From contig SCSY01000159.1 in assembly GCA_004298625.1 (NCBI GenBank), forward strand, positions 1-34,885: a DNA stretch of 34,885 nucleotides, in the 5' to 3' direction. How positions within the stretch are numbered: position 1 is the first letter of the stretch; every line of letters starts with the position of its first letter. The DNA is from Nitrospirota bacterium. GTDB lineage: Bacteria; Nitrospirota; Thermodesulfovibrionia; Thermodesulfovibrionales; UBA1546. Position numbers and translations under genes: made by a program. Of this stretch, positions 20 through 23,295 are shown piece by piece. The notes below the pieces were generated by a model. That model saw only the letters and a list, made by a program, of their open reading frames with translations. It did no database searches and was not told the DNA's origin.

Positions 20-3000
20 ATGGCAGGCTGGGCAATAAATTGGATTATCATCGCAAGGATCAAATCTGATTACGTCCCGATGGCGCCAAGCACGGCTCTA
101 TGTTTTATCTTATTGAGCGGTTCATTATTTCTGCAGCTGCTACGTCGCGGGCGTCCTCTAAGCCGCATGCTTTCGAGCGCAGGCGCATTGCTGGTTTTGC
201 TTATATGCTCTGTAATACTTATCGGATTTTTTAAAGGGATAAGGTTTGAGCTTGAACATTCCCTGTTTAAACAGAGTGAAGAACTCGGCAATATTCCCGT
301 AGGCCACATGTCTCCGATTACAGCTTTGGGCTTTTTGCCGGCAGGGTTAGCGGTTTTGTCATTGGCTGTTTCTACTGTGGAGCAGCGATTCAAAAATATG
401 GCGGTATGCCTTGCCGCCCCTGCCGTTGCAACAGGGCTTGTAACAGCATTGGGTTATCTTCACGGTTCGCCGGTATTATATGGCGGGAACATAATCCCTG
501 TAGCTCTGCCGACAGCTATTGCCTTTTTGTTTCTGGGACTGGGACTCATCGCCGCTTCAGGGACGGATGTTTTTCCTCTTCGGTTATTTATAGGGTCTTC
601 CGTGCGGGCCAGGTTGATGCGGGCCTTTCTTCCTGCCGCTATCGGCATCATCCTGATCGTCGGCTGGCTGGATGCCTTTATTCTTTCCCCTTTAGTGAAA
701 AGCCCTGCATGGTCGTCCGCTCTGGCCACAGGAGTATCCGTAATTATCTTCGGCATTATCATCTCAAAAATATCACAGGTTATCGGAAACAGCATTGACA
801 GCGCCATCGCCGAGCGCAAAAAGGCAGAGGCCGCGCTGTGTGCAAGTGAATCGAGTCTTTCCGAAGCGCAGAGGATCGGCCATATGGGGAACTGGGATTG
901 GGATATTCAGACAAATGAACTGCGTTGGTCTGATGAGATATATCGTATTTTCGGTTTGACCCCTCAGAGCTTCGGCGCAACTTATGATGCGTTTTTAAAT
1001 TCCGTGCACCCGGGCGACAGGGAATATGTTAAGGGAAAAGTTAAAGAGGCTTTATATAAGATGAAGCCTTACGGCATAGACCATCGCATTGTCTTGCCGG
1101 ACGGTCTGGAGCGAATTGTTCACGAACAGGGAGAGGTCCTGTTTAACGAAGCCGGAAAACCCATACGCATGATCGGAACGGTTCAGGATATCACCGGGAG
1201 CAAAAAGGCTGAGGAAGAATTACTCAGACTTAACAGGACGCTCAAAACGATCTCCGAATGCAATCAGGCCCTTGTGCGGGCCACAAGTGAAAAGAAGCTG
1301 CTCGGCGATATATGCAGGATCATCAAAGAATACGGAGGTTATCGCATGGCGCTGGTAGGTTATACGGAACAGAATGAGGAGAAAACAGTATGCGCCGTTG
1401 CGCAGGCAGGATACGAAGAAGGTTTTCTTGAAACAGTAAAGCTGACTTGGGCTGATACGGAATCAGGCAACGGGCCTATCGGCACGGCAATCAGGACCCG
1501 CAATATGGCTGTTTTTAAAAATGTTAATTCCGGGCAATATCCTGCTTTATGGCGCTCGGCGGCTGTTAAGCGGGGATATAGCTCTGCCGTGGGGCTGCCG
1601 TTGATATCAAATGCGGAGATATTAGGCGCTATTGCCATTTATTCATCGGAATCCGAGGCCTTTGACGATGAGGAACTTAAACTGCTTGTGGAGCTTTCGG
1701 AAGACTTGGCATTCGGCATCGCTGTATTGCGTATGCGCGCAGAGCGCATACATGCCGGAGAAAAGCTGCGTGAGAGCGAGGAGCGTTACAGGCAGCTTCT
1801 CGGCTCCTTAACAAGCTATATTTACACTGTCCGGGTGGAAAACGGCCGTTCGGCTGAAACCATACACAGTCCGGCCTGCGCAGCGGTAACAGGTTATGAT
1901 GCGGAAGAATACAAGAAAGACCCTGAGCTCTGGTACAACATGATCCATGAAGACGACAGGGGTCTTGTTATGGAGCATGTGTCCAATATCCTGCAGAGGA
2001 GGATCGCCTCTTCCGTAGAACACCGGATATCCCATAAGGACGGCTCTATTCGCTGGGTGCGGGATACCATGGTTCCGAAATTCGATGATCACGGACAACT
2101 TATTGCTTATGACGGCCTTGTTGCGGATATCACCGAACGCAAAACCGCAGAGGAGGCCATAAAAGGATATAACCTTGAACTCGAAGAAAAGGTCAGGGAA
2201 AGGACCGGCGATCTTAAGAAGGCCAACAGGGGACTTAAGGCGCTGAATAAAGAGGCCGAAGAGGCAAAAATTCAGGCGCTTGAGGCAAACAAGGCAAAGT
2301 CTGATTTTCTGGCCAACATGAGCCATGAACTAAGGACCCCGCTTAACTCGATAATCGGATTTTCAGAAGTTCTTCAGGATGAATTGTTTGGAAAACTGAA
2401 TGCAAAACAAAAAGATCATATCTCAAATATCTACGGCAGCGGGAAACATTTGTTATCTCTTATTAACGACATACTCGACCTGTCAAAGATTGAATCCGGC
2501 AAGATGGAACTCGAAGTAAGCAGATTTTTACTGAAGGATATGCTTAATGGTTCTGTGCTTATTTTTAAAGAAAAGGCTATGAAACAGGATATTGAGCTTA
2601 GCCTCAGGATTGAACCTGATGCGGACATCGAGATAGAGGCGGATGCGAGGAAATCAAAGCAGATAATGTTTAACCTGCTGAGCAATGCGCTTAAATTTAC
2701 GCCGAAAGGGGGAAGCGTGAGCGTGAGCGCACGCCTGATTTCGGATTTCGGATTTCGGAATGCGGAATTGAAAGACGAAAAATCAGCAATCCGCAATCAG
2801 CAATCCGCAATGGCCGGAGATTTCATCGAAATCAGCGTCGCTGACACCGGCGTAGGAATAAAGGCCGGGGATATGCCGAAACTATTTAAGGAATTTACAC
2901 AGCTTGAATCTGCGTATACCAAAAGCTATGAAGGCACGGGCCTTGGCCTTGCGCTCTCAAAAAAGCTTGTTGAACTTCACGGCGGAAAGATCCGGGCCGA

Positions 3001-3091
3001 GAGCGAACCTGGCAAGGGGAGCAGGTTTGTGTTTGTCATCCCGGTAAGGCATTCCAAAGATACATCGGGTCCCGGAGCCCGGAAGGAATAA
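20..3091 (+). CDS. Multi-domain sensor histidine kinase (polytopic membrane N-terminus, PAS, GAF, PAS, HisKA, HATPase_c)
   Basis: 1023-aa ORF. Several hydrophobic helices in the first ~250 aa. PAS-like GNWDWD..LRWSDEIYRIFG. H-box MSHELRTPLNSI, N box NLLSNALKFTP, G1 DTGVGI, G2 GTGLGLALS. Its stop lies 1 nt before the next ATG. Confidence 0.9.
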   Translation: MAGWAINWIIIARIKSDYVPMAPSTALCFILLSGSLFLQLLRRGRPLSRMLSSAGALLVLLICSVILIGFFKGIRFELEHSLFKQSEELGNIPVGHMSPITALGFLPAGLAVLSLAVSTVEQRFKNMAVCLAAPAVATGLVTALGYLHGSPVLYGGNIIPVALPTAIAFLFLGLGLIAASGTDVFPLRLFIGSSVRARLMRAFLPAAIGIILIVGWLDAFILSPLVKSPAWSSALATGVSVIIFGIIISKISQVIGNSIDSAIAERKKAEAALCASESSLSEAQRIGHMGNWDWDIQTNELRWSDEIYRIFGLTPQSFGATYDAFLNSVHPGDREYVKGKVKEALYKMKPYGIDHRIVLPDGLERIVHEQGEVLFNEAGKPIRMIGTVQDITGSKKAEEELLRLNRTLKTISECNQALVRATSEKKLLGDICRIIKEYGGYRMALVGYTEQNEEKTVCAVAQAGYEEGFLETVKLTWADTESGNGPIGTAIRTRNMAVFKNVNSGQYPALWRSAAVKRGYSSAVGLPLISNAEILGAIAIYSSESEAFDDEELKLLVELSEDLAFGIAVLRMRAERIHAGEKLRESEERYRQLLGSLTSYIYTVRVENGRSAETIHSPACAAVTGYDAEEYKKDPELWYNMIHEDDRGLVMEHVSNILQRRIASSVEHRISHKDGSIRWVRDTMVPKFDDHGQLIAYDGLVADITERKTAEEAIKGYNLELEEKVRERTGDLKKANRGLKALNKEAEEAKIQALEANKAKSDFLANMSHELRTPLNSIIGFSEVLQDELFGKLNAKQKDHISNIYGSGKHLLSLINDILDLSKIESGKMELEVSRFLLKDMLNGSVLIFKEKAMKQDIELSLRIEPDADIEIEADARKSKQIMFNLLSNALKFTPKGGSVSVSARLISDFGFRNAELKDEKSAIRNQQSAMAGDFIEISVADTGVGIKAGDMPKLFKEFTQLESAYTKSYEGTGLGLALSKKLVELHGGKIRAESEPGKGSRFVFVIPVRHSKDTSGPGARKE
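2737..2811 (+). repeat. In-frame heptamer-array inverted repeat: GATTTCG-type x5, spacer, AATCMGC-type x4
   Basis: Direct reading: GATTTCG x3, GAATGCG, GAATTGA, then aagacgaaa, then AATCAGC AATCCGC AATCAGC AATCCGC AAT. The arms are approximately complementary. 75 nt, translated as part of kinase 1. Confidence 0.8.
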
Positions 3092-3092
3092 A

Positions 3093-3467
3093 ATGTCCGA
3101 AAAGATACTTATTGCCGAGGATAACGAGAACAACAGGAAATTGATAAGTGATATCCTGGTCTATTACGGCTATGAAGTCGTAGAGGCCAAAGACGGGGCC
3201 GAGGCCGTTGAAATGGTTGCCGGAGAAAAGCCTGACTTGATACTTATGGATATACAGATGCCTGTCATGGACGGTTTAACAGCGCTCAAAATAATAAGAA
3301 ATGATTTAAAGATGAAGGGGGTAAAGATTATTGCCCTTACGTCCTTTGCAATGAAGGGCGACAGAGAAAGATTTTTGAAAGTCGGGTTTGATGATTATAT
3401 CACAAAGCCCATAGACACCAGGATATTGCCCGGAATAGTTAAAAATATTCTGGCGGGGAAACGCTGA
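3093..3467 (+). CDS. Single-domain response regulator (CheY-like receiver)
   Basis: 124 aa. [10 protein letters not shown], phospho-acceptor context [19 protein letters not shown] and KP motifs. Stop 1 nt before the next ATG. Confidence 0.9.
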
Positions 3468-3468
3468 A

Positions 3469-4800
3469 ATGGATAAATTTTTCGAGAGGATAAGCATCGA
3501 GGGCAAAAGCCTGCGCAACAACCTCACCGTTATAGCGACGCTTATGTATGTGCTGCCTTCTGCCGTAATGCTTTATATTTTGCACAAGGAAAATATCCTG
3601 CCGGATGTCATAACGCCCTACATTTTCATGTATAGCCTTACCATCCTGCTTGCGCTTGCAGGCCTGTTCATTCTGAGGAGAATTTTTCTGGATTTTCTAA
3701 GAATAATCAATTCCGTGAAAATGGTTGAATCAGGCAGCATAAATACAATAGAGATTTCCAAAAGCGCCGAAGAACTCAGGGATATAGCGGTTATATTCAA
3801 TAAATTCATAAAAAGGCTTGAGGAGACAACGCTTCTCCTGGATAAAGAAACGGAAAAACTTAAGCAGGAGACGTTAAGGCGTGAAAAGGCGGAATGGGAA
3901 TTGCGCAAGCTGAATGAGGAACTCGAATTGAAGATTAAAGAAAGGACCAGGGAGCTTGAAACAGCCAGGGACGCTGCAGAGGCTGCCAGTTGCGCCAAGA
4001 CGGAGTTTATAGCAAACATGAGCCATGAGATAAGGACGCCGCTCAACTCCATAATAGGATTTTCCGAGGTTCTGCATGACGGCCTGTTTGGACCGTTGAA
4101 TGAAAAGCAGAAGGAATATGTGAGCGATATACTGCTTGGCGGAAGAAACCTGCTTGAACTTATTCTGAATATTCTCGATTTTTCAGGGCTGGAATCAGGC
4201 GCCCTTAGAATTCAAAAAACAAGGTTTTTATTGAAGGATATTTTAAATTCATCCGTAACAGAGATGTCTGAAGTTCTAAAGACCCGCCATATAAATGTAA
4301 CACTTGAAATAGAACCCGATGCAGGCAAGGAGATCGAGGCGGATCGGGAAAAACTAAAACGGATAATATCGAATCTTATGAAAAATGCCGTGAAGTTCAC
4401 GCCGGATGGGGGCTTCGTGAGCGTGAGCGCACGGAAAGGGATTAGGGATTTGGGATTAGGGATTGGCGAAAAAGAACTAACCCCGGGACCCCAATCCCCA
4501 ACCCCTGATGCCGATTTCATAGAAATCAGCGTCGCCGACACCGGCATCGGAATAAAATCAGAGGACTTTCCAATGCTTTTCAAAGAATTTACACAGCTTG
4601 AAACGCCGTATACGAAAAAATACAAGGGCGCGGGTCTGGGGCTTGCGCTGACAAAGAAACTTGTAGCGCTTCTCGGCGGAAAGATATGGGTCGAAAGTGA
4701 ATTCGGCAAGGGAAGCAAGTTCACTTTTGCGGTGCCCATAAAGCAGGAAGCGCCCCGGGTTTCCGAATTCTTTCATGGAGGAACTAATGAATCCGACTAA
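3469..4800 (+). CDS. Membrane sensor histidine kinase (2 TM, coiled coil, HisKA, HATPase_c); paralogue of the 20..3091 kinase core
   Basis: H-box [13 protein letters not shown] box [12 protein letters not shown]1 DTGIGI, G2 GAGLGLALT. The DHp/CA region aligns residue by residue with kinase 1, for example GFSEVL, RFLLKD, IEPDA..EIEAD, VSVSAR and [11 protein letters not shown]. Confidence 0.9.
4438..4505 (+). repeat. In-frame heptamer-array inverted repeat: GGGATTN x4, spacer, C-rich arm
   Basis: GGGATTA GGGATTT GGGATTA GGGATTG, then gcgaaaaagaact, then AACCCC GGG ACCCC AATCCCC AACCCC. GGGATTG (4459-4465) pairs exactly with CAATCCC (4492-4498). Translated as [23 protein letters not shown]. Confidence 0.8.
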
Positions 4801-6340
4801 ACCCAAAATACTTTGTGTTGACGATGAGCCTGCAAATCTTAAACTCCTCGAAGCAATGCTTGAGCCGAGAGGTTATGAGGTGGTCAAGGCTGAGGACGGC
4901 ATAGAGGCGCTGGAGAAGATTAAAGAGCACAATATCGCCCTTGCGCTTCTGGATGTTATGTTGCCGAAGGTCAATGGTTTCGAGGTCTGCAGGATGATTA
5001 AAGGCGATGAAATGTACAGGCATATCCCCGTAGTTTTTGTTACCGGCCTGACGGCGCAGGAAGACAGGATAAAGGGCATTGCGGCAGGCGCGGAGGACTT
5101 TGTATCCAAACCCTTTGACCAGGGAGAGATACTTGCGAGGATAGATATGCTTCTCAAGGTCAGGGATCTGAACAACAGGCTCAATTCCGCATATAACACG
5201 ATAACAAATCTGATAACCTTCGGGAAAAACATAGCAATGACTTTTGACCCGCTTGATTTCGACTTCCTGTCGAGGATTGACAGCAGCATTGCCCGGTTTA
5301 TAAAAAACTCGCCCGACATGATTGACAAGCCTCAGATTGTCGTTGTCGGCATAGCCTCGGCTTCTTCACCCCTACTCGTTAGGGGAGGCGCGGCAGGAGG
5401 ATGGCAGTGGTATAGGTATGAGTCGGACTCAGGCGAGTTGAGAAGGACGCCGATTGATTCCGGCATCTATAAGTATCTGGAATTGCCTCCTGACGGCAGT
5501 TCAAAAACAGCCTTTTATAACGAGGCTGATTTAAGGGGATCGGGGTTGGGATTGTTTACTGACAAGCTTGAGACGATGTCGGTCAAGGCGTCGAATATGG
5601 TCTGTTTTGTAAGCGGAGCTTTCTGCGTCTTTGCCGTTAATTATGCCAGGGCTGTTTCCATGTTCGATGCAGAGGTGTTAAACAGCATAGTGATGCAGGA
5701 CCTTTATTTAAAATCCCTTGCGTCTCAGGTAAAGGAGACGGAGGATGCCTTCGATTACCTTGTATTTGCCCTTGCAAGGGCGGCGGAAGCCAATGACGAG
5801 GATACAGGGAATCATATCATGAGGGTCGGCGAGTATTGCGCGCTTATAGCACGGCAGCTCGGGATGCCGGAGAAGTTTTCGGATATTTTCCGCATCCAGG
5901 CCACCCTCCACGACGTTGGAAAAATCCATGTGTCTCCGCTGGTGCTCAAAAAACCGGGGAAGCTTACGCCGGAGGAATTCGAGCAAATGAAAAGGCATCC
6001 CGTATATGGAGCCATGATACTCGGAGATCATGTTAGGCTTAAACTTGCAAAATCCATAGCCCTTACGCATCACGAAAGATGGGATGGAAGCGGTTATCCT
6101 TACGGGCTGAAGGGCGAGCAGATACCTATAGAAGGAAGAATATTAAACATAGCAGACCAGTATGATGCCCTGAGGAACCCGCGTCCCTATAAACCTGCCC
6201 TGGATCACCCGACAACATATAAAATAATCGCAGAGGGCGACGGCAGGACCTTGCCGGGCCATTTCGATCCTGCAGTGCTGAAGGCATTTAAAGAAACCGT
6301 CTCACAATTTGAAGATATTTATGAAAGGCTGAAGGGATAG
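4775..6340 (+). CDS. Response regulator with C-terminal HD-GYP phosphodiesterase domain (RpfG-like); central ~200 aa of unknown function
   Basis: REC motifs [26 protein letters not shown] motifs [29 protein letters not shown]. Overlaps the kinase 2 stop. An alternative ATG at 4787 follows GGAGGA. Confidence 0.9.
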
Positions 6341-10439: not shown

Positions 10440-10784
10440 ATGCGGACAATCGAATACAAAGGAATTGAGATTAAACTGGACGATGACGGTTATCTTTTAA
10501 ATTCCGACGACTGGAATGAGGGTGTTGCTTGCGCGCTTGCTGAAACAGAAAATGTTGAAGAGCTCACAAAAGACAGAATGGACATAATAAAGTTTATGAG
10601 AGAATATTACAAAGTGCATAATGCCTTTCCGATCCTGAGGGCTGTCTGCAAAAACGTTCGCCAGTCGAAAGATTGTTTCAGCGAAAAATTCATTGACCCA
10701 CTGAAGGCATGGAAGATAGCAGGACTGCCCAAGCCCGACGTGCACGTGATAGCCGACATAAGAGGAGAGGGGGGGGTTGTATAA
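10440..10784 (+). CDS. DsrC/TusE/RspA-superfamily protein lacking the C-terminal arm cysteines in the annotated frame
   Basis: GGAGG RBS. IEYKGIEIKLDDDGYLLNSDDWNE, LTKDRMDIIKFMREYY and KIAGLPKP are hallmark DsrC-family segments. The frame-0 tail is DVHVIADIRGEGGVV. Confidence 0.8.
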   Translation: MRTIEYKGIEIKLDDDGYLLNSDDWNEGVACALAETENVEELTKDRMDIIKFMREYYKVHNAFPILRAVCKNVRQSKDCFSEKFIDPLKAWKIAGLPKPDVHVIADIRGEGGVV

Positions 10785-10815
10785 AATCTCCGGCAATATC
10801 CGCGGCTGAAAAAGG

Positions 10816-12777
10816 ATGAATAGGCTCTCTGCAGAAAGGTCTGCGTATCTGAAGCATTCCGCTTATCAAAATGTAGCCTGGTATCCGTGGTCCGAGGAAG
10901 CCTTTGAAAAGGCAAGGGAAGAAGACAAGCCGGTCTTTCTCAGCACAGGCGCAGTATGGTGCCACTGGTGCCACGTCATGGCAAGGGAATGCTTTGAAAA
11001 TGAAGAGATTATAAAAATTCTCAATGAGAATTTCATCAATATAAAATTAGATAGGGACGAGAGACCTGATATTGACAGGAGATACCAGTTGGCGGTTGCA
11101 GCCATGGGTTATGGCGGAGGATGGCCTTTAAGCGTGTTCCTCACCCCTGACAAGAAACCTTTTTTCGGAGGCACATATTTCCCCCCTGAAGATAGTCACG
11201 GCAGGCCGGGATTTAAAAAAGTGTTGATTAGCGTGTCTGATTTTTATAAAGCAAAACGAAGTTCTGTTTATGAATTCAGCGAAAAACTCGATGGTCTCCT
11301 TAAACCAGGGCCTTTATCATCAGGAGAGCTTAACGAGTCCATGCTGAATCAAGCAGTAGGGGATATTCTTTCTGAATTCGATCCTCAGAACGGCGGTTTC
11401 GGCACAGTTCCGAAATTTCCGATGCCGGGCGCAATGGAGTTTTTGATAAACAGATATTATTTTGACCGAAAAGAATCTATAGAGGCCGCTGTCAAGAAGA
11501 CCCTTGAGGCCATGGCAAAGGGCGGATTCCGCGACCATGTCGGAGGCGGGTTCCACAGGTATTCAACCGATGAGGCATGGATTATTCCTCATTTTGAAAA
11601 AATGGCTGATGATAACGCATGGCTTTTAAGGAATTATAGCGACGCATACGCTGTTTTCGGAGATGAATATTATAAGAAAATCGCGGAGGAGATAATAGGA
11701 TTTATAAGAGCTGTTCTGTCGGATCCAAACGGCGGCTTTTATGCCAGTCAGGACGCCGATGTAATACCTGAGGATGAAGGCGGGTATTTTACATGGACCG
11801 AAGAGGAGTTCAGAAGAATACTGGATGAGGATGAATACCGGGTCCTGTCCCTTTGCCTGTTTCATGAGAGAGGGTCCATGCCTCACGACGAACTGAAAAA
11901 GGTATTGTTTATTGGTGCGGAGGCGGAAGAAGCTGCCGTGAAAACTGGAATGGACTTGAAAAGCGTTAACGATATAATTAAACGGGGAAAAGAAAAATTA
12001 CTTAAAGAAAGAAATAAGAGGGAAACGCCGTTTATTGACAGGTCCTTGTATATGTCTCTGAACGGCATGCTCATAACCTCATATCTTAATGCCTACAGGA
12101 TATTGAAGGATGAATACCTGAAAGATTTTTCCTTAAAGACCCTTGAAAGATTGCTGAAAAGCCGTTTTATCAACTCCGAACTTTTTCATTCAGAGGGCGT
12201 AAAGGCGGTATTGGAGGACTATATATATTTGATAGAGGCGTTAATTGCAGCATACGAGGTTAGCGGAAGCGCGTCTTATATCAATCAGGCAAATGAGCTC
12301 ATGGCATTATGCATAAAAAAATTCTGGGACGAGACAGAGGCCGGGTTTTTTGATACTGCCGAAGAAGTTTTGGGCGTAAGGCTTAAGGCGATAGAAGATA
12401 TCCCGCATCCCTCGGCAAATGCGCTCGGCATTATACAGCTTTTAAGGCTTTATCATTTAAGCGACAATCAGGAATATCTTAAAAAGGCAGGGAGGGCCTT
12501 AAGGGCTTTTTCAGGAAGGGCTGCGGAGTTGGGCCTTCATTCAGGCTATTATTTCTATGCAGCTGATTATTATTTCAATATGCTCAGGCTTACCTTGCAT
12601 ATTAAGCCCCAGAGTCGCTTAAGCAAGGAGGCGCTTTCCAGCTACAGTCCTTATACAAGCATAAATTACTCGGATGATAAGGGATATATACTTCCCTGCG
12701 GCAAATCCGGATGTTATGAGCCTGTTTATAATATTGACGAACTTAAGGATTTCTTAAGGAGCAGGCGGAAAAAATGA
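10816..12777 (+). CDS. Thioredoxin-domain (DUF255) protein with C-terminal alpha/alpha-toroid domain (YyaL / SPATA20-like)
   Basis: 653 aa. N-terminal AWYPWSEEAFEKAREEDKPVFLSTGAVWCHWCHVM is typical of the family. Long helical-repeat C-terminal part. Confidence 0.9.
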   Translation: MNRLSAERSAYLKHSAYQNVAWYPWSEEAFEKAREEDKPVFLSTGAVWCHWCHVMARECFENEEIIKILNENFINIKLDRDERPDIDRRYQLAVAAMGYGGGWPLSVFLTPDKKPFFGGTYFPPEDSHGRPGFKKVLISVSDFYKAKRSSVYEFSEKLDGLLKPGPLSSGELNESMLNQAVGDILSEFDPQNGGFGTVPKFPMPGAMEFLINRYYFDRKESIEAAVKKTLEAMAKGGFRDHVGGGFHRYSTDEAWIIPHFEKMADDNAWLLRNYSDAYAVFGDEYYKKIAEEIIGFIRAVLSDPNGGFYASQDADVIPEDEGGYFTWTEEEFRRILDEDEYRVLSLCLFHERGSMPHDELKKVLFIGAEAEEAAVKTGMDLKSVNDIIKRGKEKLLKERNKRETPFIDRSLYMSLNGMLITSYLNAYRILKDEYLKDFSLKTLERLLKSRFINSELFHSEGVKAVLEDYIYLIEALIAAYEVSGSASYINQANELMALCIKKFWDETEAGFFDTAEEVLGVRLKAIEDIPHPSANALGIIQLLRLYHLSDNQEYLKKAGRALRAFSGRAAELGLHSGYYFYAADYYFNMLRLTLHIKPQSRLSKEALSSYSPYTSINYSDDKGYILPCGKSGCYEPVYNIDELKDFLRSRRKK

Positions 12778-14062: not shown

Positions 14063-14563
14063 ATGAATGCAATCGAGATAGCAATCAGGATGGAGACGGA
14101 CGCAATAACTTTCTATACAGACGCAGCCAAAAAGACGAAAAATCCTGTCGGCAAAAAGATGTTTCTCACGATAACAGAGGATGAAAAAAGGCATCTCAAA
14201 ATGCTTTCTCAGATATTTAAAGGGCTTGACATAAAGTTGAAGGACGTCAGCCCGATGAAGAATATCAAGACAGTCTTTGAAGGGCTGAAAGGCAAGATGA
14301 TGGAGCGGGTTAGCGCAACTTCTAATGAGCTTGAGGCATTTAAGATCGCAATGCAGATGGAAAAAGAGGGGATAAAATTTTACAAGAAAACCGCTAAAGA
14401 GGCAAAGAAAGAAAAAGAAAAGAAACTTTTTGAAAGGCTTGTTCATGAAGAAGAACAGCACTATAACATTTTTGCGAATACGTATTTTTTCATGTCTGAC
14501 ACCGGGAGTTGGTTTATGTGGGAAGAGCACAGCATCGTAGACGGCGGGACGCCATGGGCATAA
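14063..14563 (+). CDS. Rubrerythrin-type di-iron four-helix-bundle protein (second copy)
   Basis: RMETDAITFY..EDEKRH and MQMEKEGIKFY..EEEQH. Confidence 0.75.
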   Translation: MNAIEIAIRMETDAITFYTDAAKKTKNPVGKKMFLTITEDEKRHLKMLSQIFKGLDIKLKDVSPMKNIKTVFEGLKGKMMERVSATSNELEAFKIAMQMEKEGIKFYKKTAKEAKKEKEKKLFERLVHEEEQHYNIFANTYFFMSDTGSWFMWEEHSIVDGGTPWA

Positions 14564-14566
14564 AAG

Positions 14567-14628
14567 CAGTTATCAGTTATTAGTTGTCAGTTTTTGGACT
14601 AACAACTAAAAACTAAGAACTAAAAACT
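14567..14628 (+). repeat. Intergenic heptamer-array hairpin, CAGTTAT-type x4 then AACTAAN-type x4; terminator-like
   Basis: CAGTTAT CAGTTAT TAGTTGT CAGTTTT tgg act AACAACT AAAAACT AAGAACT AAAAACT, followed by TTTTT. TTAGTTGT (14580-14587) pairs perfectly with ACAACTAA (14603-14610). Confidence 0.8.
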
Positions 14629-14644
14629 TTTTCCGGAGGAAAAT

Positions 14645-14959: not shown

Positions 14960-16000
14960 ATGAGTGCTAAGACCATTAATTTCAGGAAAGCGCCTGGAAA
15001 AATCCTCATAATCAAACCGAGTTCTCTCGGCGACATTGTCCACAGCCTGCCGTTTCTTAATGTCTTAAGGGAGAGCTTCCCAAAATCCGAGATTCATTGG
15101 GTTGTTGCAAGAGGGCTCGAGGGCCTGCTTGAAGGCCATCCGATGATAAACAAGCTCTGGGTCATAAACAAGGATGAATGGAAAAAGATAAAGAATGTTA
15201 AGGGCACGGTAAGGGAACTGGCAAAATTATTTGGGGCCTTGAAGAACGAGAGATTTGACCTTGTGGTTGACCTTCAGGGACTCCTGCGAAGCGGAATTCT
15301 GGCGGCGGCAACACGCTCTCCCTTGCGGATAGGGTTCAGCGAGGCAAGGGAAGGCGGCAGTCTATTTTATACGCACAGGGTTAAAGGAGGAAAGGAGATA
15401 CACGCCGTGGACAGGTATCTTAAGATTGCGCAATCACTCGGCTGCAATATTTCTGATATCAGATTTCCTTTTCCATTATCTTTCAACTCTTCACTTTCAA
15501 CTCCTAACTTTCAACTTCCAAAGGAATACGCCGTGATTGTTCCCGGCGCAAGATGGCAGACCAAGAGATGGCCTGCCGGGAGATTTGGAGAGTTGGCGTC
15601 AATGTTGTCAATAACGTCTCTTATTGTCGGCGGAAAAGCTGATATCGAGATATCAAATAGAGTTGCAGCAGGCTCCAAAGGCAATGCCATATCTCTTGCA
15701 GGCAAAACGAGCATTAAAGACCTGATAGATATAATGAGAAACGCTCAGTTTGTTGTAAGCAATGATTCAGGCCCCATGCATATTGCGGCAGCCCTCGGCG
15801 TGCCTGTCTTTGCGATATTCGGCCCTACGAATCCGTCAAGGACAGGGCCTTACGGCAAAGGGCATGTAATTATAAGAAAAGGGCTTGAATGCTCTCCGTG
15901 CTATAAAAAAAGCTGCAAAGATATCAGGTGCATGGCTGCCGTAAGCGTTAAAGAAGCCGCTGAAATTATCGGGCGGAGAGCGCATAAAAAAGGTTATTGA
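14960..16000 (+). CDS. Glycosyltransferase family 9 (LPS heptosyltransferase-like)
   Basis: ILIIKPSSLGDIVHSLP near the N-terminus and NDSGPMHIAAALGVPVFAIFGPTNP near the C-terminus. Confidence 0.85.
   Translation: MSAKTINFRKAPGKILIIKPSSLGDIVHSLPFLNVLRESFPKSEIHWVVARGLEGLLEGHPMINKLWVINKDEWKKIKNVKGTVRELAKLFGALKNERFDLVVDLQGLLRSGILAAATRSPLRIGFSEAREGGSLFYTHRVKGGKEIHAVDRYLKIAQSLGCNISDIRFPFPLSFNSSLSTPNFQLPKEYAVIVPGARWQTKRWPAGRFGELASMLSITSLIVGGKADIEISNRVAAGSKGNAISLAGKTSIKDLIDIMRNAQFVVSNDSGPMHIAAALGVPVFAIFGPTNPSRTGPYGKGHVIIRKGLECSPCYKKSCKDIRCMAAVSVKEAAEIIGRRAHKKGY
15480..15521 (+). repeat. In-frame 14-nt x3 tandem repeat (CTTTCAACTYYYMA), heptamer-periodic
   Basis: CTTTCAACTCTTCA CTTTCAACTCCTAA CTTTCAACTTCCAA. 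42 nt, translated SFNSSLSTPNFQLP in the inter-domain linker of the GT9 enzyme. Confidence 0.85.
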
Positions 16001-16572: not shown

Positions 16573-16588
16573 AAAGGGGGTGAAGAAG

Positions 16589-16623
16589 ATTTAATATTCA
16601 AGATTCAAGATTTAAAATTTAAA
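16589..16623 (+). repeat. Heptamer array ATTYAAR x5 abutting the Shine-Dalgarno of the rhodanese gene
   Basis: ATTTAAT ATTCAAG ATTCAAG ATTTAAA ATTTAAA, then AAGGAGG. Confidence 0.7.
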
Positions 16624-16634
16624 AAGGAGGATTT

Positions 16635-17126
16635 ATGAAAAGATTCCATGTGATTTTTTTTGCATTGGTTCTCTCTGTGATATTGGCAGCGCCTGCCGTT
16701 TATGCGGCAGACGATATGGCGGCAAAGCTTAATGCAGCGCTTATGAAGGCTCCTTCCGAAGGGCACTGGCAGATTAAGACAGCCGACGTAGCGAAGATGG
16801 TAACTGAAAAGAAGACCGATTTTTTAGTAGTTGACGTCAGGCCTACTCCTCCGGGGCAGATGGGCGGCAAGATTCCCGGTTCTATTTATATTCCTTACAA
16901 TGAAATCCTGAAGCCTGAAAACCTGAAGAAACTCCCGAAGGACAAGAAAGTCATACTGGTATGCGTAACGGGACAGACTCAGAATCTGCCGATACTTGCG
17001 CTCAGGGCGCTTGGGTATAAGGCATATACCATGACCTTCGGCATGTCTTCATGGATAAAAGGTTACATGGGCGCCAAGTTTATGCAGGACGCCATAAGCG
17101 GAGCTAATTATCCGGTTGAGAAGTAA
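16635..17126 (+). CDS. Secreted single-domain rhodanese (sulfurtransferase)
   Basis: Sec signal MKRFHVIFFALVLSVILAAPAVYA-AD. Active-site loop CVTGQTQ. FLVVDVRP. Confidence 0.8.
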   Translation: MKRFHVIFFALVLSVILAAPAVYAADDMAAKLNAALMKAPSEGHWQIKTADVAKMVTEKKTDFLVVDVRPTPPGQMGGKIPGSIYIPYNEILKPENLKKLPKDKKVILVCVTGQTQNLPILALRALGYKAYTMTFGMSSWIKGYMGAKFMQDAISGANYPVEK

Positions 17127-17192: not shown

Positions 17193-18905
17193 ATGATGAA
17201 TGACGCCGATCGCGGCTTGATTAAGAAATATTACGTCTTTATTTTTTCGATCCTCACACTCCTGACATTTGTCGCTCTTTTTTTGTTAAGGTCTCTGGAC
17301 GACAACAGACTTACAAGCTGGCAGTGGGTATTTGCAGGCGCAGACGCCTCAAAGGTTTTTTTAATCCTCATCCCCGGCATCCTATCCGCCTATATATTTT
17401 CAAAGGTCTCATTCTTGGAACGTTATCTCGTAGAGTCGAGTCTGCGACCCGCAGTATTTCTCTTTTTGTTTTCCTATCTTATTACAATTTTTTTCTGGAG
17501 AGAGCCTGAGGTAATTGTGGACGCCTCGAGGTATTTTACCCAGGCCAAGCATCTTGAAGTTTACGGCGTCGGGTATTTCTTCAGGGAATGGGGCAGGGAT
17601 ATCATGGCGTGGACCGATATGCCGCTTATCCCCTTTCTTTACGGCCTGATATTTAAATTTTTTGGAGAATCGAGATTATACATACAGATGTTTACAACGT
17701 TCCTTTTCTCTGTGACGGTTGTCCTTACCTACATGATCGGGAAAGCTCTCTGGAACGAAGATATCGGCTTATACGGAGGAATGCTCCTTCTCGGAATTCC
17801 ATACCTATTTACTCAGGTTCCGCTTATGCTCGTTGATGTTCCTGCAATGTTTTTTCTCATGCTCGCAGTTTTTTCGACTATAAGAGCTCTGGACAGGGGA
17901 GGATGGTTTATCGGACTCGCATCTGTCGCTATATTCCTTGCCTTTTTTTCCAAATATTCGGCATGGCTGATGCTCTCGGTTCTGGCTGCGATCTTTTTTG
18001 TGTATATTAAAAATAACCGCGCAACTTTTAATAGGGCTGCGTTAGTTGTTTTGATTTCCGGCCCGTTGATAGGCATAGTGTTTTTATTTAAATACGAAGT
18101 CTTTTCAGAGCAGATAAGGCTTCTGATGAGCTATCAGAAACCAGGGCTGAAAAGATGGGGTGAAAGTTTTATCTCAACCTTTTTTTTCCAGATACATCCA
18201 TTTATTACTGCGGCCGCATTATACTCGGCATACGCTGCTTTAAGAAAAAAGGATTTAAAATATTTAATCATAATCTGGCTTGTTTTGCTCACAGTTGCGC
18301 TTCGGATAAAGCGCATACGTTACATAATCATGGTTTTTCCTATGCTGAGCCTGATGGCTGCTTATGGGCTTGCGCAGATCGGGAAGAAAGAAGCTGTGAG
18401 ATTTATTTCACTCTGCATTGTAGTCTTCTCGGTTGTCGTGGGTCTTTTGGGTTATCTGCCGCTTATGCAGAAAATGAGCGCCGTGAATCTCAGAGCTGCG
18501 GGTCGTTTCCTGGATTCGGTGAAAGGGCCGGATGTCAGAGTCTTTGCGCTTTTGCCTGAGGAACCTGAAGTCAACACTGCTGTTGCCGTGCCTGTTCTGG
18601 ACCTTTTTACGAAAAAAAATATCATCTATGACTATAAAGATATTTATCATCAGCCGTCTGAAAAAATTAAAAAGTCTTCTTTGAGGTTTACATGGGAATA
18701 CAAAAACCCTGAATATTATGCCGGCGATAAACATTCCAAAGAGACTGCGGCAGTAGTGATAATATCAGATGATGCGAAGGACGTTGTTCCCGAAAATATT
18801 AAGAGGCAGTTATCAGGGCATCGGCTCTCGGAGGTATTTAATATATCCGAAGGGATATTTCGTTATAGAACCGGGGTAAGAATATATCAACCCGACGGAG
18901 ATTGA
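17193..18905 (+). CDS. Polytopic membrane glycosyltransferase, GT39 / ArnT (PMT_2)-like
   Basis: 570 aa with more than 10 hydrophobic helices and a soluble C-terminal ~130 aa. The N-terminal loop and helix layout resembles 4-amino-L-arabinose / mannosyl transferases. Family call by architecture only. Confidence 0.5.
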   Translation: MMNDADRGLIKKYYVFIFSILTLLTFVALFLLRSLDDNRLTSWQWVFAGADASKVFLILIPGILSAYIFSKVSFLERYLVESSLRPAVFLFLFSYLITIFFWREPEVIVDASRYFTQAKHLEVYGVGYFFREWGRDIMAWTDMPLIPFLYGLIFKFFGESRLYIQMFTTFLFSVTVVLTYMIGKALWNEDIGLYGGMLLLGIPYLFTQVPLMLVDVPAMFFLMLAVFSTIRALDRGGWFIGLASVAIFLAFFSKYSAWLMLSVLAAIFFVYIKNNRATFNRAALVVLISGPLIGIVFLFKYEVFSEQIRLLMSYQKPGLKRWGESFISTFFFQIHPFITAAALYSAYAALRKKDLKYLIIIWLVLLTVALRIKRIRYIIMVFPMLSLMAAYGLAQIGKKEAVRFISLCIVVFSVVVGLLGYLPLMQKMSAVNLRAAGRFLDSVKGPDVRVFALLPEEPEVNTAVAVPVLDLFTKKNIIYDYKDIYHQPSEKIKKSSLRFTWEYKNPEYYAGDKHSKETAAVVIISDDAKDVVPENIKRQLSGHRLSEVFNISEGIFRYRTGVRIYQPDGD

Positions 18906-19196
18906 GCATAAAGTTCGGCAGTTTGAGGGGCAATTTAAAGGTTTTTATAAGCCGATAAAAAGCTTAAATCTAAAATTATAGTTTTAGCTTGATTTTTGAT
19001 TACATTTTTGTGTATATATACATGCACAAATATAGGTTTGGAAACGGCATATTGCTTGAAAAGTTCAGATGCAAAATTAAGATACGGCATTTAACTGAAT
19101 AAATTTTGTCCGGAAAGGGGGAGGTAATTATAGCCAAGTAAAATCTTCGGATAACATTTTGCCTTTTATAAATATAAAAAAGGAGGTAAAAAAGCT

Positions 19197-20654
19197 GTGG
19201 AAACAACGGTAGATACGTCGGAAAAAAAGAATCAGATATGGGCCTTTATAATTACGGGCGCCATGCTCCTCATCAGTCTCATGTACTACAAGGCCAGTCC
19301 ATATTATATGTATATTGTGGTATATGTCTGGTTTGGATTTGCTTATGGTATGATGCTTCAGTATGGAAGGTTTTGTTTTGCCTCTGCTTCGAGGGACCTT
19401 TTTGCTGCGGGTGTTCCCCGAATGGCGGTAGGCGTTCTTGTTGCCCTGATGTTTTTCAGCCTTATTCAAGCAACTCTCTCCTCGACCAACATGAGCACGT
19501 TCCATCCTGCGCCGTTCGGGATACATACGCTCATAGCAGGCCTGATCTTCGGCGTTGGAATGGTCCTTTCAGGAGGCTGCGCATCAGGCTCTCTCTACAA
19601 GATAGGCGAGGGTAATATGACTTCCTTCCTGGCTGCATTCTTTGGTCTCTGCATCGGTCAGGCAATATTCGTGGACGTCAAATGGTTTGATTTCCTTATC
19701 CCTCAGAAATGGGTTGATTCGGCAATGGCAAAGGGACTTCCTGCCGAGGTAATGACTTCGTCTTTCGACAAATATCTTGCAGGCTATATCTGGGATCAGC
19801 CGTCTATTCAGTTATCTCACACAAAGGCTGTATCCGAGGCATTGCCCGGAATATCCAGGTATTTTATAGCCGATTCACTGCTTAATACCCTGATACCTGC
19901 AATGGTAGTTCTTATCGTGATCTACTACTTCTACAGCAGGAAAGGGTTTATGAAGAAAAGGGCCAAGGTAAAAAGCGGCCCAACCGGCTTCGGCGATGAG
20001 GCTGCAGGTTTATGGAATATGATAACCGCATCAAAGAGAACGACTATTATGGGCGTAATAATCGGCATGGTGGCAGGACTGCACATATTTGTAATAAAAG
20101 GGATGCAGATTAAATACGGCGTTACAAATTTTGGACAGGTGCTGACAAGGATGAATAATGCCGGTGACATAACGCTCAAGGCAGGTGAGGTAGGGATCAA
20201 GGGCACAATCTTTGATCCGGGATACTGGTATATTACCAGCCAAGAGGGACAGCTCGGAGCCTGGATCCTTGAAAAATTCGGCTGGAATATGAGAGATAAT
20301 ATATTCTTTGGAGTAAATAACGGTCTTCCGGAACCATGGCGCAATCCAGCCCTCTGGATGTCTCTCGGCATTATTTTTGGGGCAATGGTAATGGCAAGGC
20401 TGAATAACGAATACAAGTTCAAGCTGCCTAAAGGAGAGCTTATTGTTTGGGGTCTTCTCGGCGGAATATTAATGGGCTGGGGTTCGAGGCCTGCGCTCGG
20501 CTGCAATATCGGAGCATTCTTTATAAGAGTCGCCGGCGGGGACCCGAGCGGCTGGTTATATGGCACAGGCATGGTCGGCGGAGCCTTTGTCGGAGTAAAG
20601 TTTTTCAACTGGTGGTCCGAGAGAAAGATGGCAAAGGAAATGGAATCGTTTTAA
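19197..20654 (+). CDS. YeeE/YedE-family sulfur (thiosulfate) transporter, long two-half form
   Basis: GTG start after AGGAGG. Conserved half-site motifs GGCASGSLY and LGCNIGAF. Polytopic. 485 aa because of extra loops between the halves. Confidence 0.8.
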   Translation: METTVDTSEKKNQIWAFIITGAMLLISLMYYKASPYYMYIVVYVWFGFAYGMMLQYGRFCFASASRDLFAAGVPRMAVGVLVALMFFSLIQATLSSTNMSTFHPAPFGIHTLIAGLIFGVGMVLSGGCASGSLYKIGEGNMTSFLAAFFGLCIGQAIFVDVKWFDFLIPQKWVDSAMAKGLPAEVMTSSFDKYLAGYIWDQPSIQLSHTKAVSEALPGISRYFIADSLLNTLIPAMVVLIVIYYFYSRKGFMKKRAKVKSGPTGFGDEAAGLWNMITASKRTTIMGVIIGMVAGLHIFVIKGMQIKYGVTNFGQVLTRMNNAGDITLKAGEVGIKGTIFDPGYWYITSQEGQLGAWILEKFGWNMRDNIFFGVNNGLPEPWRNPALWMSLGIIFGAMVMARLNNEYKFKLPKGELIVWGLLGGILMGWGSRPALGCNIGAFFIRVAGGDPSGWLYGTGMVGGAFVGVKFFNWWSERKMAKEMESF

Positions 20655-20696
20655 AAATTAAAAATTTAAAATTAAACACTAAGGAGGAATTTAATC

Positions 20697-20980: not shown

Positions 20981-21262
20981 ATGAAAACACCTCTGGTGAT
21001 TATAATCGTAGTTGTTGTTGCTATGCTTGGTTTTTTGACCATCTACAGCCAGCAGCATGACATGACTGCGCAGGAACAGGGACACGGAGGAGCAGCAGGA
21101 GGTTATGGGACTTCTGCGCCGGCATCCGGCGGGTATGGAACTACTGCACCCGCAGCAGGCGGATATGGGGCTTCTGCCCCTGCAGCAGGAGGTTATGGGG
21201 CTTCCGCGCCGGCATCCGGTGGGTATGGAGCAGCGCCCGCGGCAGGCGGATATGGCAAATAA
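20981..21262 (+). CDS. Small signal/anchor protein with Gly-Tyr-Ala-Pro decapeptide repeats
   Basis: GAGGAGGG RBS. Hydrophobic N-terminus MKTPLVIIIVVVVAMLGFLTIY, then six copies of A[AS]GGYG[AT][ST]AP. Confidence 0.6.
   Translation: MKTPLVIIIVVVVAMLGFLTIYSQQHDMTAQEQGHGGAAGGYGTSAPASGGYGTTAPAAGGYGASAPAAGGYGASAPASGGYGAAPAAGGYGK
21092..21259 (+). repeat. 30-nt coding tandem repeat organised as a 90-nt super-repeat x2
   Basis: Units R1-R6. R1 resembles R4 (GCAGCAGGAGGTTATGGG), R2 resembles R5 (GCATCCGGYGGGTATGGA), and R3 resembles R6 (GCRGCAGGCGGATATGG). Confidence 0.85.
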
Positions 21263-21894: not shown

Positions 21895-23295
21895 GTGAAA
21901 AACTTGACCGATTCTGAAAATCAAATCCTTATACTCGGCGGGGGACTCACAGGGCTTTCAGCCGGATATGTCCTTACAGGCTCGGGGTTCCGCGTCAAAG
22001 TGTTCGAGAGGGACGATGCAGTCGGCGGACTTTCAAAGACTATTATCCATAACGGCTTTCGTTTTGATTTAGGCGGGCACAGATTTTTTACAAAAGATAA
22101 TAAAGTAAATGATTTCGTGAAAAGCCTGATGGATGAAGAACTGATTGAGGTTGCGCGCAAAAGTAAGATTTATATGCGCAACAGGTATTTCGATTATCCG
22201 CTTAAACCCGTAAATGCCATATTCGGTATGGGCCTCCCGACTACACTTAAGATTATATCCGACTATGGCCTTGAGAAGATTAAAAAACTCATAAAAGAGC
22301 CGGATAATATTTCTCTCGAAGACTGGGTAGTCGGTAATTTCGGCCGCAAGATGTTTGACATCTATTTCAAGGAATACAGCGAAAAGGTGTGGGGCATCAA
22401 CTGCGACAGGATTAGCTCTGAATGGGTGGAGCAGCGCATAAGAGGGCTTTCCCTTGCAAAGGCCGTTAAGAACGCCTTTTTCAAGGTGAATGGGAAAGAT
22501 GTGCCGACACTTGCCGACAGGTTTCTATATCCGCAACTGGGCATAGGGCGCATTTCCGACAGGTTGAGGGAGGAGATAGACAGGCACAATGATGTGTTTA
22601 CCGGCACAGGCGTGAAATGTATTAACCACTCTGATTACAGGATAGAGGGCATTGAGGTTGGAAACCCGTTGCATTCCGGTGTAATACATGGAAGGGAAAT
22701 TATATCAAGCATACCAATGAATAAGCTGGTCCTGATGCTTAATCCGTCTCCGCCTGAGGATATTCTCGATGCAGCTTTAAAACTGAAGTTCAGGGATATT
22801 GTCATAGTGACGGTAATGATTGACAGAGAAAGAGTTACGGATCAGACATGGATATATGTCCCTGAAAAGAAGATACCTTTCGGCAGGATCCACGAGCCTA
22901 CGAACTGGAGCAGGAAGATGGCCCCCGAAGGCAAGACGCTTATCGTGACGGAGTTTTTCAGCTTTAAAGGCGACGGGATATGGAATGAGAACGATGAACG
23001 GCTCGTTGCTGTTACTGTTGAGAATCTGGAAAAACTTGGATTTATTAAGAAGCATGAGGTGATAGACAGCGCCGTGGTAAGGGTGCCCGGGGCCTATCCT
23101 TTGTTTGAGGTGGGATATAAAGAATTGTGCGATAAATTATATGATTATTTAAGCAGGTTCGGGAATCTCCATATCGCGGGCAGGGGTGGGATGTTCAGAT
23201 ACTATAATATGGACCATGCGATTGAGTCCGGGATAAAGGCGGCGGAGAAAATTTTAATCAAGGCTGACAGCTATCAGCTATCAGCTATCAGCTAA
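21895..23295 (+). CDS. FAD/NAD(P)-dependent oxidoreductase (amine-oxidase / UDP-galactopyranose-mutase-like fold)
   Basis: GTG start. Dinucleotide fold ILILGGGLTGLSAGYVL..VKVFERDDAVGGL. FDLGGHRFF. Confidence 0.7.
   Translation: MKNLTDSENQILILGGGLTGLSAGYVLTGSGFRVKVFERDDAVGGLSKTIIHNGFRFDLGGHRFFTKDNKVNDFVKSLMDEELIEVARKSKIYMRNRYFDYPLKPVNAIFGMGLPTTLKIISDYGLEKIKKLIKEPDNISLEDWVVGNFGRKMFDIYFKEYSEKVWGINCDRISSEWVEQRIRGLSLAKAVKNAFFKVNGKDVPTLADRFLYPQLGIGRISDRLREEIDRHNDVFTGTGVKCINHSDYRIEGIEVGNPLHSGVIHGREIISSIPMNKLVLMLNPSPPEDILDAALKLKFRDIVIVTVMIDRERVTDQTWIYVPEKKIPFGRIHEPTNWSRKMAPEGKTLIVTEFFSFKGDGIWNENDERLVAVTVENLEKLGFIKKHEVIDSAVVRVPGAYPLFEVGYKELCDKLYDYLSRFGNLHIAGRGGMFRYYNMDHAIESGIKAAEKILIKADSYQLSAIS
23266..23293 (+). 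repeat. Heptamer array (G/A)(A/T)CAGCT x4 forming the last codons and the stop of the oxidoreductase
   Basis: GACAGCT ATCAGCT ATCAGCT ATCAGCT, with TAA at 23293-23295. Encodes the tail SYQLSAIS. The next ATG is at 23298. Confidence 0.8.

Follow-up and report, generated by a model that had tools for sequence, protein, structure and literature searches.

At one edge of a 34,885-nt contig from a Nitrospirota bacterium (SCSY01000159.1; this whole stretch of DNA is what we call the window), the gene for a sensor kinase, here kinase 1, carries within its ATP-binding domain an insert made of two facing arrays of 7-nt units. We found that, across the family, inserts able to form hairpins, most of them heptamer-periodic, cluster at the site of this insert, a hot spot that abuts a family-specific coding palindrome. 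Taking the evidence together, we lean modestly towards the view that the insert is an in-frame translated tandem heptanucleotide repeat of the inverted-pair kind, which sits at a family-wide hot spot, has been reshaped by slippage and is tolerated as a surface loop. The features of kinase 1 on which the analysis turns are these:

20 to 3091, forward strand: sensor kinase 1 (PAS-GAF-PAS-HisKA-HATPase_c), from its open reading frame and Pfam domains.
2735 to 2818, forward strand: the complete in-frame insert, 84 nt or 28 residues (LISDFGFRNAELKDEKSAIRNQQSAMAG), delimited against the 22-residue baseline of relatives.
2737 to 2771, forward strand: left heptamer array, GATTTCG three times (2737-2757), GAATGCG (2758-2764) and GAATTGA (2765-2771).
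2772 to 2780, forward strand: A-rich spacer of 9 nt, AAGACGAAA, which forms the loop of the hairpin.
2781 to 2811, forward strand: right heptamer array, AATCAGC AATCCGC AATCAGC AATCCGC (2781-2808) and then AAT, an imperfect complement of the left array.
2819 to 2833, forward strand: coding palindrome GATTTC-ATC-GAAATC (D-F-I-E-I), immediately 3' of the insert.

In the HATPase_c domain the insert separates the N box from the G1 box, and all 84 nt are translated; the preliminary description of this DNA had proposed the position and in-frame reading, for 75 nt, from the letters and reading frames alone. It is flanked by ...VSVSAR and DFIEISV, and insert-free relatives read ...AR-RDG-DFIEISV at this point. 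Kinase 1 is identical to a public record (P0121, 'MAG: PAS domain S-box protein, partial [Nitrospirae bacterium]', where MAG denotes a metagenome-assembled genome), a record that calls the protein partial at the contig edge. Pfam recognizes a histidine kinase core in it (HATPase_c, 94.6 bits; HisKA, 85.2 bits), and since 136 residues (875-1010) are aligned to 109 positions of the HATPase_c model (2-110 of 111), about 27 residues of this domain are extra. Solved kinases show an alignment gap at the insert point.

Both the periodicity and the complementarity of the kinase 1 repeat are far above chance, and its thermodynamic stability is not exceptional. Tandem Repeats Finder (TRF) reported arrays of period 7/14 at 2737-2766 and 2781-2811, and a repeat search paired 2738-2769 with 2780-2811 (32 nt each, 78% complementary, 10-nt spacer). 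Compared to 200 dinucleotide shuffles of the insert, both the identity at a lag of 7 nt, which is the best lag (0.68; z = 8.0), and the ungapped inverted-repeat score (14.5; z = 6.7) were high, so the heptamer arrays and imperfectly complementary arms of the preliminary description are borne out at 2737-2811, and shuffled sequences do not reproduce them. Within the left array, lag-7 identity reaches 0.88, and the stem has one mismatch per unit, at fixed phases of the 7-nt unit. The unit is confined to 2737-2764 within the window, in which every array has a different unit. Folding, which had been proposed as a check, gave no such signal: the predicted energy of 2725-2825 as RNA was no better than that of shuffles (z = -0.08), and that of the insert folded alone was not beyond shuffles either (z = -1.2). 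The long hairpin, when forced, has -20.7 kcal/mol as RNA and -13.4 as DNA; the minimum free energy (MFE) fold of 2735-2838, at -29.3, recruits the flank.

A known RNA family, promoter or terminator at this site was rejected, none having matched: searched against both strands of 2400-4900, the covariance models of Rfam 15 left nothing at E <= 1, and nothing resembling a promoter or a terminator overlaps the insert. We also rejected an assembly artefact, because the same architecture recurs in many independent assemblies from several sources.

Inserts at this position proved to be common in the family. The catalytic core of kinase 1 was compared with its best 120 homologues (56-69% identical). 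Their spacer from the N box to the G1 box, counted for 114, is bimodal, with 22-26 residues in 52 of the 114 and 36-64 residues in 53; the latter have 14-42 extra residues, always at the same point. These close homologues belong to Nitrospirota, Desulfobacterota and Geobacter. Thus, the preliminary description was right to place the repeat in a catalytic domain, but in calling it unusual there it understated the case, with 53 of 114 close homologues having an insert at the exact site. The insert peptides are mutually unrelated and visibly two-armed (RDLGLGIG...PKPQTPTPD, SSEFKVQ...ELRTMNSEL, TRDEGRRTRDE..., AHGSQFMAHS...ELSAMNYEL and MQDTGY...SCLVNP), and the inserts, of 54-120 nt, have no sequence in common among kinase 1, its paralogue kinase 2 (see below) and their relatives. 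The closest full-length relatives of kinase 1 carry other inserts (P0122, P0123, P0124) or none (P0125, P0126), and its insert is therefore lineage-specific, which the preliminary description had left to a comparison of orthologues; relatives either lack the segment or have a heptamer-periodic segment of their own.

We read about 30 distinct inserts as DNA, from 28 metagenome loci found with a degenerate DNA pattern scan, which selected contigs with inserts of 55-85 nt plus D-F-[IV]-E-I, and from exact-protein look-ups. The best autocorrelation lag was 7 in nearly all of them (z = 3-9), and the inverted-repeat z was above 3 in about 70%; A-rich loops were seen again in several related inserts. 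Beyond kinases 1 and 2, about 25 inserts exceed chance by far in both periodicity and complementarity. A minority are hairpins of other kinds (the VIARS...ARND, GAIR...SPLQ and PPLAKGGEGG types). Equally long loops of unrelated control kinases, from Streptomyces (L042, L049, L052), a cyanobacterium and Gemmatimonadales (L011 and L005 are also among the loops examined), had neither 7-periodicity nor arm complementarity. A contig scan with the family alignment yielded, among the matches listed, only kinases 36-50% identical and without inserts, which served as negative controls. Our full-text literature searches turned up no description of a kinase hot spot for heptamer inserts.

The window itself holds a second case, in a kinase two genes downstream, past a response regulator gene (3093-3467) adjacent to kinase 1:

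3469 to 4800, forward strand: sensor kinase 2 (HisKA-HATPase_c), from its open reading frame and Pfam.
4435 to 4512, forward strand: second in-frame insert, 78 nt or 26 residues, unrelated in sequence to that of kinase 1 but placed at the same codon position.
4437 to 4464, forward strand: left array of kinase 2, (A/T)GGGATT four times, from sequence and TRF, followed by an A-rich loop.
4481 to 4505, forward strand: right, C-rich arm of kinase 2, CCCCGGGACCCCAATCCCCAACCCC, which pairs with the G-rich array.
4513 to 4527, forward strand: kinase 2 copy of the palindrome, GATTTC-ATA-GAAATC.

Kinase 2 is a paralogue of kinase 1 (55% identity across the catalytic core), and its insert has 4 + about 4 units, where that of kinase 1 has 5 + 4. 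The insert shows the same signals (lag-7 z = 6.0; inverted-repeat z = 4.9), has an MFE z of -2.5, and its 101-nt fold (4425-4525) is more stable than shuffles (z = -2.45). On the sense (mRNA) strand, its left arm, GGGATTAGGGATTTGGGATTAGGG (4437-4464), matches the canonical motif of a quadruplex, G3-N4-G3-N4-G3-N4-G3. The kinase 2 element, the conserved palindrome that adjoins the inserts and a window-wide excess of period-7 arrays (see below) go beyond the preliminary description.

Each insert is followed directly, on its 3' side, by D-F-x-E-I codons with the sequence GATTTC-NNN-GAAATC. This palindrome is longer in many members, where it reaches 12 perfect pairs, GAC-AGA-GAT-TTC / GAA-ATC-TCT-GTC (D-R-D-F / E-I-S-V), and the extended form of the family is GAC-xxx-GAT-TTC / NNN / GAA-ATC-Ser-GTC; in kinase 1, the six inner pairs and three of the six outer pairs are Watson-Crick. 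The mean number of Watson-Crick pairs out of 12 is 9.67 in insert-bearing members (n=30) and 8.0 in insert-free members (n=6; one-sided p = 0.015), and other kinases with the same geometry have 3.72 (n=88), that is, a random level. Codon choice is biased toward pairing: Asp is GAT in 85% (48% in the background) and Glu is GAA in 86% (52%; p about 1e-4 each), and Ile is ATA in 0% at the palindrome (28%; p about 1e-4). Moreover, the codon that precedes the Asp and the six-fold degenerate codon of the Ser vary together (AGA/TCT, GGA/TCC, CGA/TCG, GCT/AGC; permutation p = 0.003). These statistics are indicative and not conclusive, because the tests take no account of shared ancestry and draw on 25-36 sites. 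A third exact GATTTC-NNN-GAAATC (E-D-F-F-E-I-T) occurs at 28028-42, in a 602-residue protein with no Pfam match, and has no insert adjoining; thus, the palindrome alone is insufficient for an insert.

The preliminary description had noted that both unit types recur in the downstream flank, and had taken this as a hint that the array arose locally. The copies are literally present (GATTTCA at 2819-2825; AATCAGC at 2829-2835), but an origin from the flank is not significant against dinucleotide shuffles (either match, p = 0.11; 7-mer sharing, p = 0.14). The longest match between the kinase 1 insert and its flank is 9 nt inverted (p = 0.05) and 8 nt direct (p = 0.19), and flank similarity reaches p < 0.05 in 1 of 28 family inserts and not in kinase 2. 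At the left edge of the insert, CTGATTTCG (2735-2743) exactly complements CGAAATCAG (2827-2835), a pairing that the MFE fold of 2735-2838 uses. This pairing and the shared AAATCAGC make birth of the array from the adjacent palindrome arms attractive in kinase 1, yet with p = 0.05-0.19 we rejected it.

The palindrome and the paired arms raise the question of whether nucleic-acid structure is itself under selection. On this explanation, the hairpin (in kinase 2, the G-quadruplex) and the small palindrome would make up an intragenic cis-acting RNA or DNA element, conserved in structure and not in sequence, which might act on pausing, on mRNA processing or stability, or on recombination. Arm complementarity is indeed preserved despite completely different sequences, the palindrome combines synonymous-site bias with a covarying extension, inserts have a prevalence of about 50% at a fixed position, and both kinase 2 and an intergenic hairpin of the window (14565-14628; z = -2.06) fold better than shuffles. 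We nevertheless regard this explanation as unlikely. The kinase 1 fold is no better than shuffles and the site has no Rfam match and no overlapping terminator-like or promoter-like site, half of the family is insert-free, the left arm of a kinase-2-type insert has been lost in one related contig (L104), and complementarity has been lost in two others (L088, L089). Furthermore, arm mismatches are A/C in 27 cases and G/T in 7, the opposite of what a sense-strand mRNA hairpin would lead one to expect, although avoidance of stop codons could bias these counts. Selection for a sense-strand mRNA hairpin as the main force is thus disfavoured both by the mismatches and by the non-significant energy of kinase 1.

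At the protein level, AlphaFold2 modelled the kinase 1 core with a mean predicted local distance difference test (pLDDT) score of 84, and the model superposes on the catalytic cores of GacS (7z8n), HK853 and RetS, its best matches. Model residues 150-158 and 186-193 form confident strands, and residues 161-180, the core of the insert, fall in blocks of pLDDT 55 and 49. In this model, the insert is a loop of low confidence flanked by the two beta-strands through which the N box connects to the G1 box, which agrees with the surface loop for which the preliminary description had suggested modelling. The insert peptide is probably without a catalytic role. A solved hybrid kinase (PDB 7p8e) has about 85 unaligned residues at the same position, and because of this the loop between the N and G1 boxes may be a general permissive insertion site in the HATPase fold.

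We considered that the loop might be adaptive, giving each paralogue a distinct surface for pathway insulation or partner binding, with heptamer slippage as the generator of diversity. Catalytic cores that are otherwise nearly identical vary most in this loop; within a class, for example RDLGLGI...PxPQxPxPD, the peptide is about as conserved as the core; and the 7p8e alignment places a long insertion at the same site in plant hybrid kinases. However, the loop is predicted to be disordered, at low confidence, close relatives function without any insert, and no partner or interface is known. Selection on the protein would, moreover, leave the inverted complementarity and the 7-nt period of the DNA unexplained, and we judge an adaptive loop to be quite unlikely.

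The structure of the arms points to slippage. Across inserts, lag-7 identity within arms (0.8-0.9) at least equals complementarity between arms, and arm mismatches repeat at the same phase of the unit; this high within-arm identity, together with the phase-locked mismatches, suggests that each arm was amplified or homogenised separately, as by slippage. On one metagenome contig (L114), two paralogous kinases have a common right arm and differ on the left, with about 10 and about 5 GGACGAG units. The GGACGAG / CTCGTCC family of this contig lies at 16628-16771, 10748-10960, 14546-14640, 17489-17513 and 18881-18990. Its GGACGAG units are found in a 20-unit array right past a stop codon, in three kinase loops and in an N-terminal extension of a receiver domain; the third of the loops belongs to another kinase subfamily and mixes GGACGAG with four copies of AGTTCGG.

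Inserts also differ where the surrounding DNA hardly does. Of three genes whose flanking DNA is almost the same, one has no insert (P0011), one a non-heptamer hairpin and one a heptamer hairpin (P0019 and P0009 being the filled ones), and their cores are 86-88% identical in protein. The sensor domains of the three (L112, L115 and L116, respectively for P0011, P0019 and P0009) differ (PAS_9; PAS_4 + PAS_9; RsbU_N) and the DNA of their catalytic cores is nearly identical, which suggests that the HisKA-HATPase_c cassette was recently duplicated, shuffled or gene-converted. More generally, cores of same-class inserts are no more alike than the family average (0.63-0.68 vs 0.649). Either the inserts turn over faster than the cores diverge, or the cores have been homogenised around old inserts. 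A single ancient insertion followed by vertical descent is unsupported, as same-class cores are not closer and near-identical flanks differ in state.

In the reading towards which we lean, that of a slippage-reshaped heptanucleotide repeat, each arm would grow and be homogenised through replication slippage in 7-nt steps, and gain, loss and replacement of inserts would outpace divergence of the catalytic core. Survival would be restricted to stop-free, frame-preserving inserts, because the 14-42 encoded residues would be a disordered loop on the surface, with the Bergerat fold left intact; one unit more or less would cut the kinase short upstream of the G1 box.

Several points weigh against this reading. 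Near-identical copies from different samples (L088/L094/L098/L099; L082/L101/L106) showed no length polymorphism, and slippage is for this reason deduced from paralogues and not observed at the kinase 1 locus itself. The similarity of the insert to its flank is not significant and no target-site duplication is visible. Homogenisation of cores by gene conversion, with old and stable inserts, could mimic fast turnover. That inserts are so prevalent, that their length is bimodal and that the palindrome is under synonymous constraint all hint at some function beyond that of a passive passenger. The statistics ignore phylogenetic non-independence, and the contigs of the metagenome scan were preselected for 55-85 nt inserts with D-F-[IV]-E-I. 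Finally, unit families recur in unrelated cores and elsewhere, as does GTTCAC in an array at the stop codon of the L082 kinase; a mobile or copied element fits this recurrence better than a purely local birth.

Such a mobile hairpin would be a small non-autonomous palindromic element, like repetitive extragenic palindromic (REP) sequences, MITEs (miniature inverted-repeat transposable elements) or Rickettsia palindromic elements (RPEs), that prefers the coding palindrome and of which only in-frame copies survive. It would account for several unrelated hairpin types at one site (heptamer arrays as well as the VIARS...ARND, GAIR...SPLQ and PPLAKGGEGG types), for same-class inserts in kinases with different sensor domains and only average core identity, and for the different insert states within near-identical flanking DNA. 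The spread of GGACGAG on L114 over three kinase loops, an N-terminal extension and a 20-unit intergenic array is in line with it too, as is the presence of the GTTCAC unit both in loops and at a gene end. However, the alignment of filled (P0019, P0009) with empty (P0011) genes shows neither a target-site duplication nor conserved termini, the kinase 1 and kinase 2 inserts have no common sequence, neither of their units recurs in the 35-kb window, and units mostly differ between sites of one contig. There was also no transposase among the scanned part of the open reading frames of the window, in which no systematic search was made. On balance we hold a mobile element to be rather improbable, if plausible. 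In L082 (6153-6172) and L088 (2078-2125), heptamer arrays overlap kinase stop codons and reach to the next ribosome-binding site, and GTGAACC, the unit in L082, is in reverse complement the GTTCAC unit that other organisms have in their kinase-loop inserts.

Since the unit length is not a multiple of three, gain or loss of one unit could in principle also serve as a reversible frameshift, that is, as a phase-variable on/off switch of the kinase. In simulation, one-unit changes in kinase 1 end the protein prematurely at residue 914-943, short of the G1 box, and in a related contig (L102, 364-488) the kinase is frameshifted within its insert, of which the left array (GTTCSAG, 3-4 copies) and an A7 run are left before DGDFVEISV. 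An assembly error might explain this frameshift, as might a pseudogene or a phase-off allele, and the doubt takes away from its weight. Kinase 1 has only three perfect units, and copies that are nearly identical but come from different samples do not differ in unit number; a switch of this kind seems very unlikely to us.

Period-7 arrays also occur elsewhere in the window:

14565 to 14628, forward strand: intergenic hairpin, a CAGTTAT-type array facing an ACTAAAA-type array, which begins 2 nt past the stop codon of the rubrerythrin gene.
15480 to 15521: period-7/14 array, CTTTCAACTCCTAA, 2.6 copies, translated in a family-9 glycosyltransferase (open reading frame 14960 to 16000).
16586 to 16624 and 20651 to 20676: AT-rich heptamer arrays (AAGATTY, TTAAAAA), directly 5' of ribosome-binding sites.
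23268 to 23294: CAGCTAT four times, in which an amine-oxidase-like gene (21895 to 23295) has its last codons and its stop codon.

The intergenic hairpin has the build of the kinase inserts, and a role as terminator or stabiliser is conceivable. The glycosyltransferase array lies upstream of a conserved '...VIVPGARWQTKRWP' segment and is without an inverted partner. The amine-oxidase-like gene ends 3 nt before the start of the next gene, and the AT-rich arrays precede a rhodanese-like gene and a small gene, a placement like that of the TAACTGA repeats of Beggiatoaceae. Thus, heptamer arrays are also found in a glycosyltransferase and at the end of an amine oxidase gene, and the hairpin form is concentrated at the one kinase site. 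Period-7 arrays are the commonest class of tandem repeat, at 26 per 100 kb in the window and 28 per 100 kb in related contigs, the latter density being inflated because those contigs were selected for inserts; in distant control genomes, where periods 9 and 12 prevail, their density is 7.7 per 100 kb. Half of the period-7 arrays in the window and the related contigs (36/72, again with contigs selected for such inserts) sit in the kinase loop. The window also holds a 30-nt tandem repeat unrelated to the heptamer arrays (21092-21228, 4.6 copies), which encodes (A)AGGYG(T/A)SAP decapeptides in a protein of 93 residues with a hydrophobic N-terminus (open reading frame 20981 to 21262).

If the inserts do more than persist, the loop between the N and G1 boxes might be a dedicated site of diversification or control, at which the palindrome nucleates or recruits hairpin repeats and so gives each paralogue an mRNA or DNA structure and a surface loop of its own. 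We offer this as a doubtful proposal. Were it true, loop and hairpin could act as an identity tag for paralogues, as a recombination barrier between near-identical cores, or in structure-dependent control of expression, and this would be the first case in which the birth site of a heptanucleotide array is set by a recognisable sequence feature. If, on the other hand, the insert is a mere passenger, peptides such as SDFGFR, AIRNQQSA and RDLGLGIG would be translated repeat DNA. Among the long simple repeats of many bacterial genomes, those with a heptanucleotide unit are the most over-represented, and their origin and role are unexplained. Dozens of independent arrays at one codon position beside a palindrome, in a large family of paralogues with empty and filled sites, offer a natural comparative system for the origin and turnover of such arrays, in which one can ask whether they act as RNA, DNA or peptide. 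Moreover, in half the members of a widespread kinase family the ATP-binding domain accommodates 14-42 additional residues, mostly of low complexity, a finding that bears on annotation, on domain models and on the engineering of a permissive insertion site.

Among known systems, RPEs were the parallel drawn in the preliminary description. They are families of 100-150 bp with a conserved consensus, dispersed over many unrelated Rickettsia genes. Like the kinase insert, they are palindromic DNA translated in frame and tolerated on the protein surface with the fold preserved, and this part of the parallel holds. The rest does not: unlike RPEs, the kinase inserts have no shared consensus and are not multi-copy, they are 7-nt tandem arrays at one preferred site of one kinase family, and the host here is a Nitrospirae MAG. 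The likeness is thus an analogy only.

Quasipalindrome template switching and slipped-strand mispairing resemble our case in the palindrome beside a variable site, the homogenised arms and the unit-number differences between paralogues. Classical quasipalindrome template switching makes point changes or short templated changes that perfect an existing palindrome, and we know of no description of the birth of an 80-nt two-armed heptamer array; derivation of the array from the local palindrome is, in addition, statistically unsupported here. Simple-sequence contingency loci share with kinase 1 an intragenic position, a unit not divisible by three and truncation of the product by a one-unit change. 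In contrast to such loci, the kinase 1 tracts are short and imperfect, near-identical family copies show no polymorphism, and the product is a cytoplasmic signalling kinase and not a surface antigen.

The closest comparison is with tandem heptanucleotide repeats, of which the short tandemly repeated repetitive (STRR) sequences of cyanobacteria are one class. Others include GGGAATC of Xanthomonas and GGGGA(C/T)T of Nostoc, which also occur as inverted pairs (Rehm et al. 2015, PMC4692102). In that work, four units were preferred, 70-75 inverted pairs were found per Xanthomonas genome, the repeats clustered within 50 bp of stop and start codons and were under-represented in coding sequence, and it was remarked that there was no detailed literature on heptanucleotide repeats (PMC4692102). 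Four GGGACCG repeats, again preferred as four units, occur in Geobacter metallireducens, 'within genes' and between genes, one copy lying in the linker between fused proteins (Aklujkar et al. 2009, PMC2700814), and TAACTGA repeats have been described in Beggiatoaceae (MacGregor 2015, PMC4679880). With these repeats the kinase inserts share the 7-nt unit, about four units per array and convergent arrays that pair into a stem-loop; the left arm of kinase 2, with its four G3-N4 steps, resembles heptanucleotide repeats that form quadruplexes; and the other arrays of the window likewise sit at stop- and start-codon junctions and occasionally inside genes. However, known families have one dominant unit per genome, and here the unit differs at almost every site; a single unit dispersed in many copies is absent from these 35 kb and was seen on contig L114 only. 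Furthermore, the known repeats are mainly intergenic, whereas the arrays of kinase 1 and kinase 2 are translated and are concentrated at one codon position of one protein family, beside a conserved coding palindrome.

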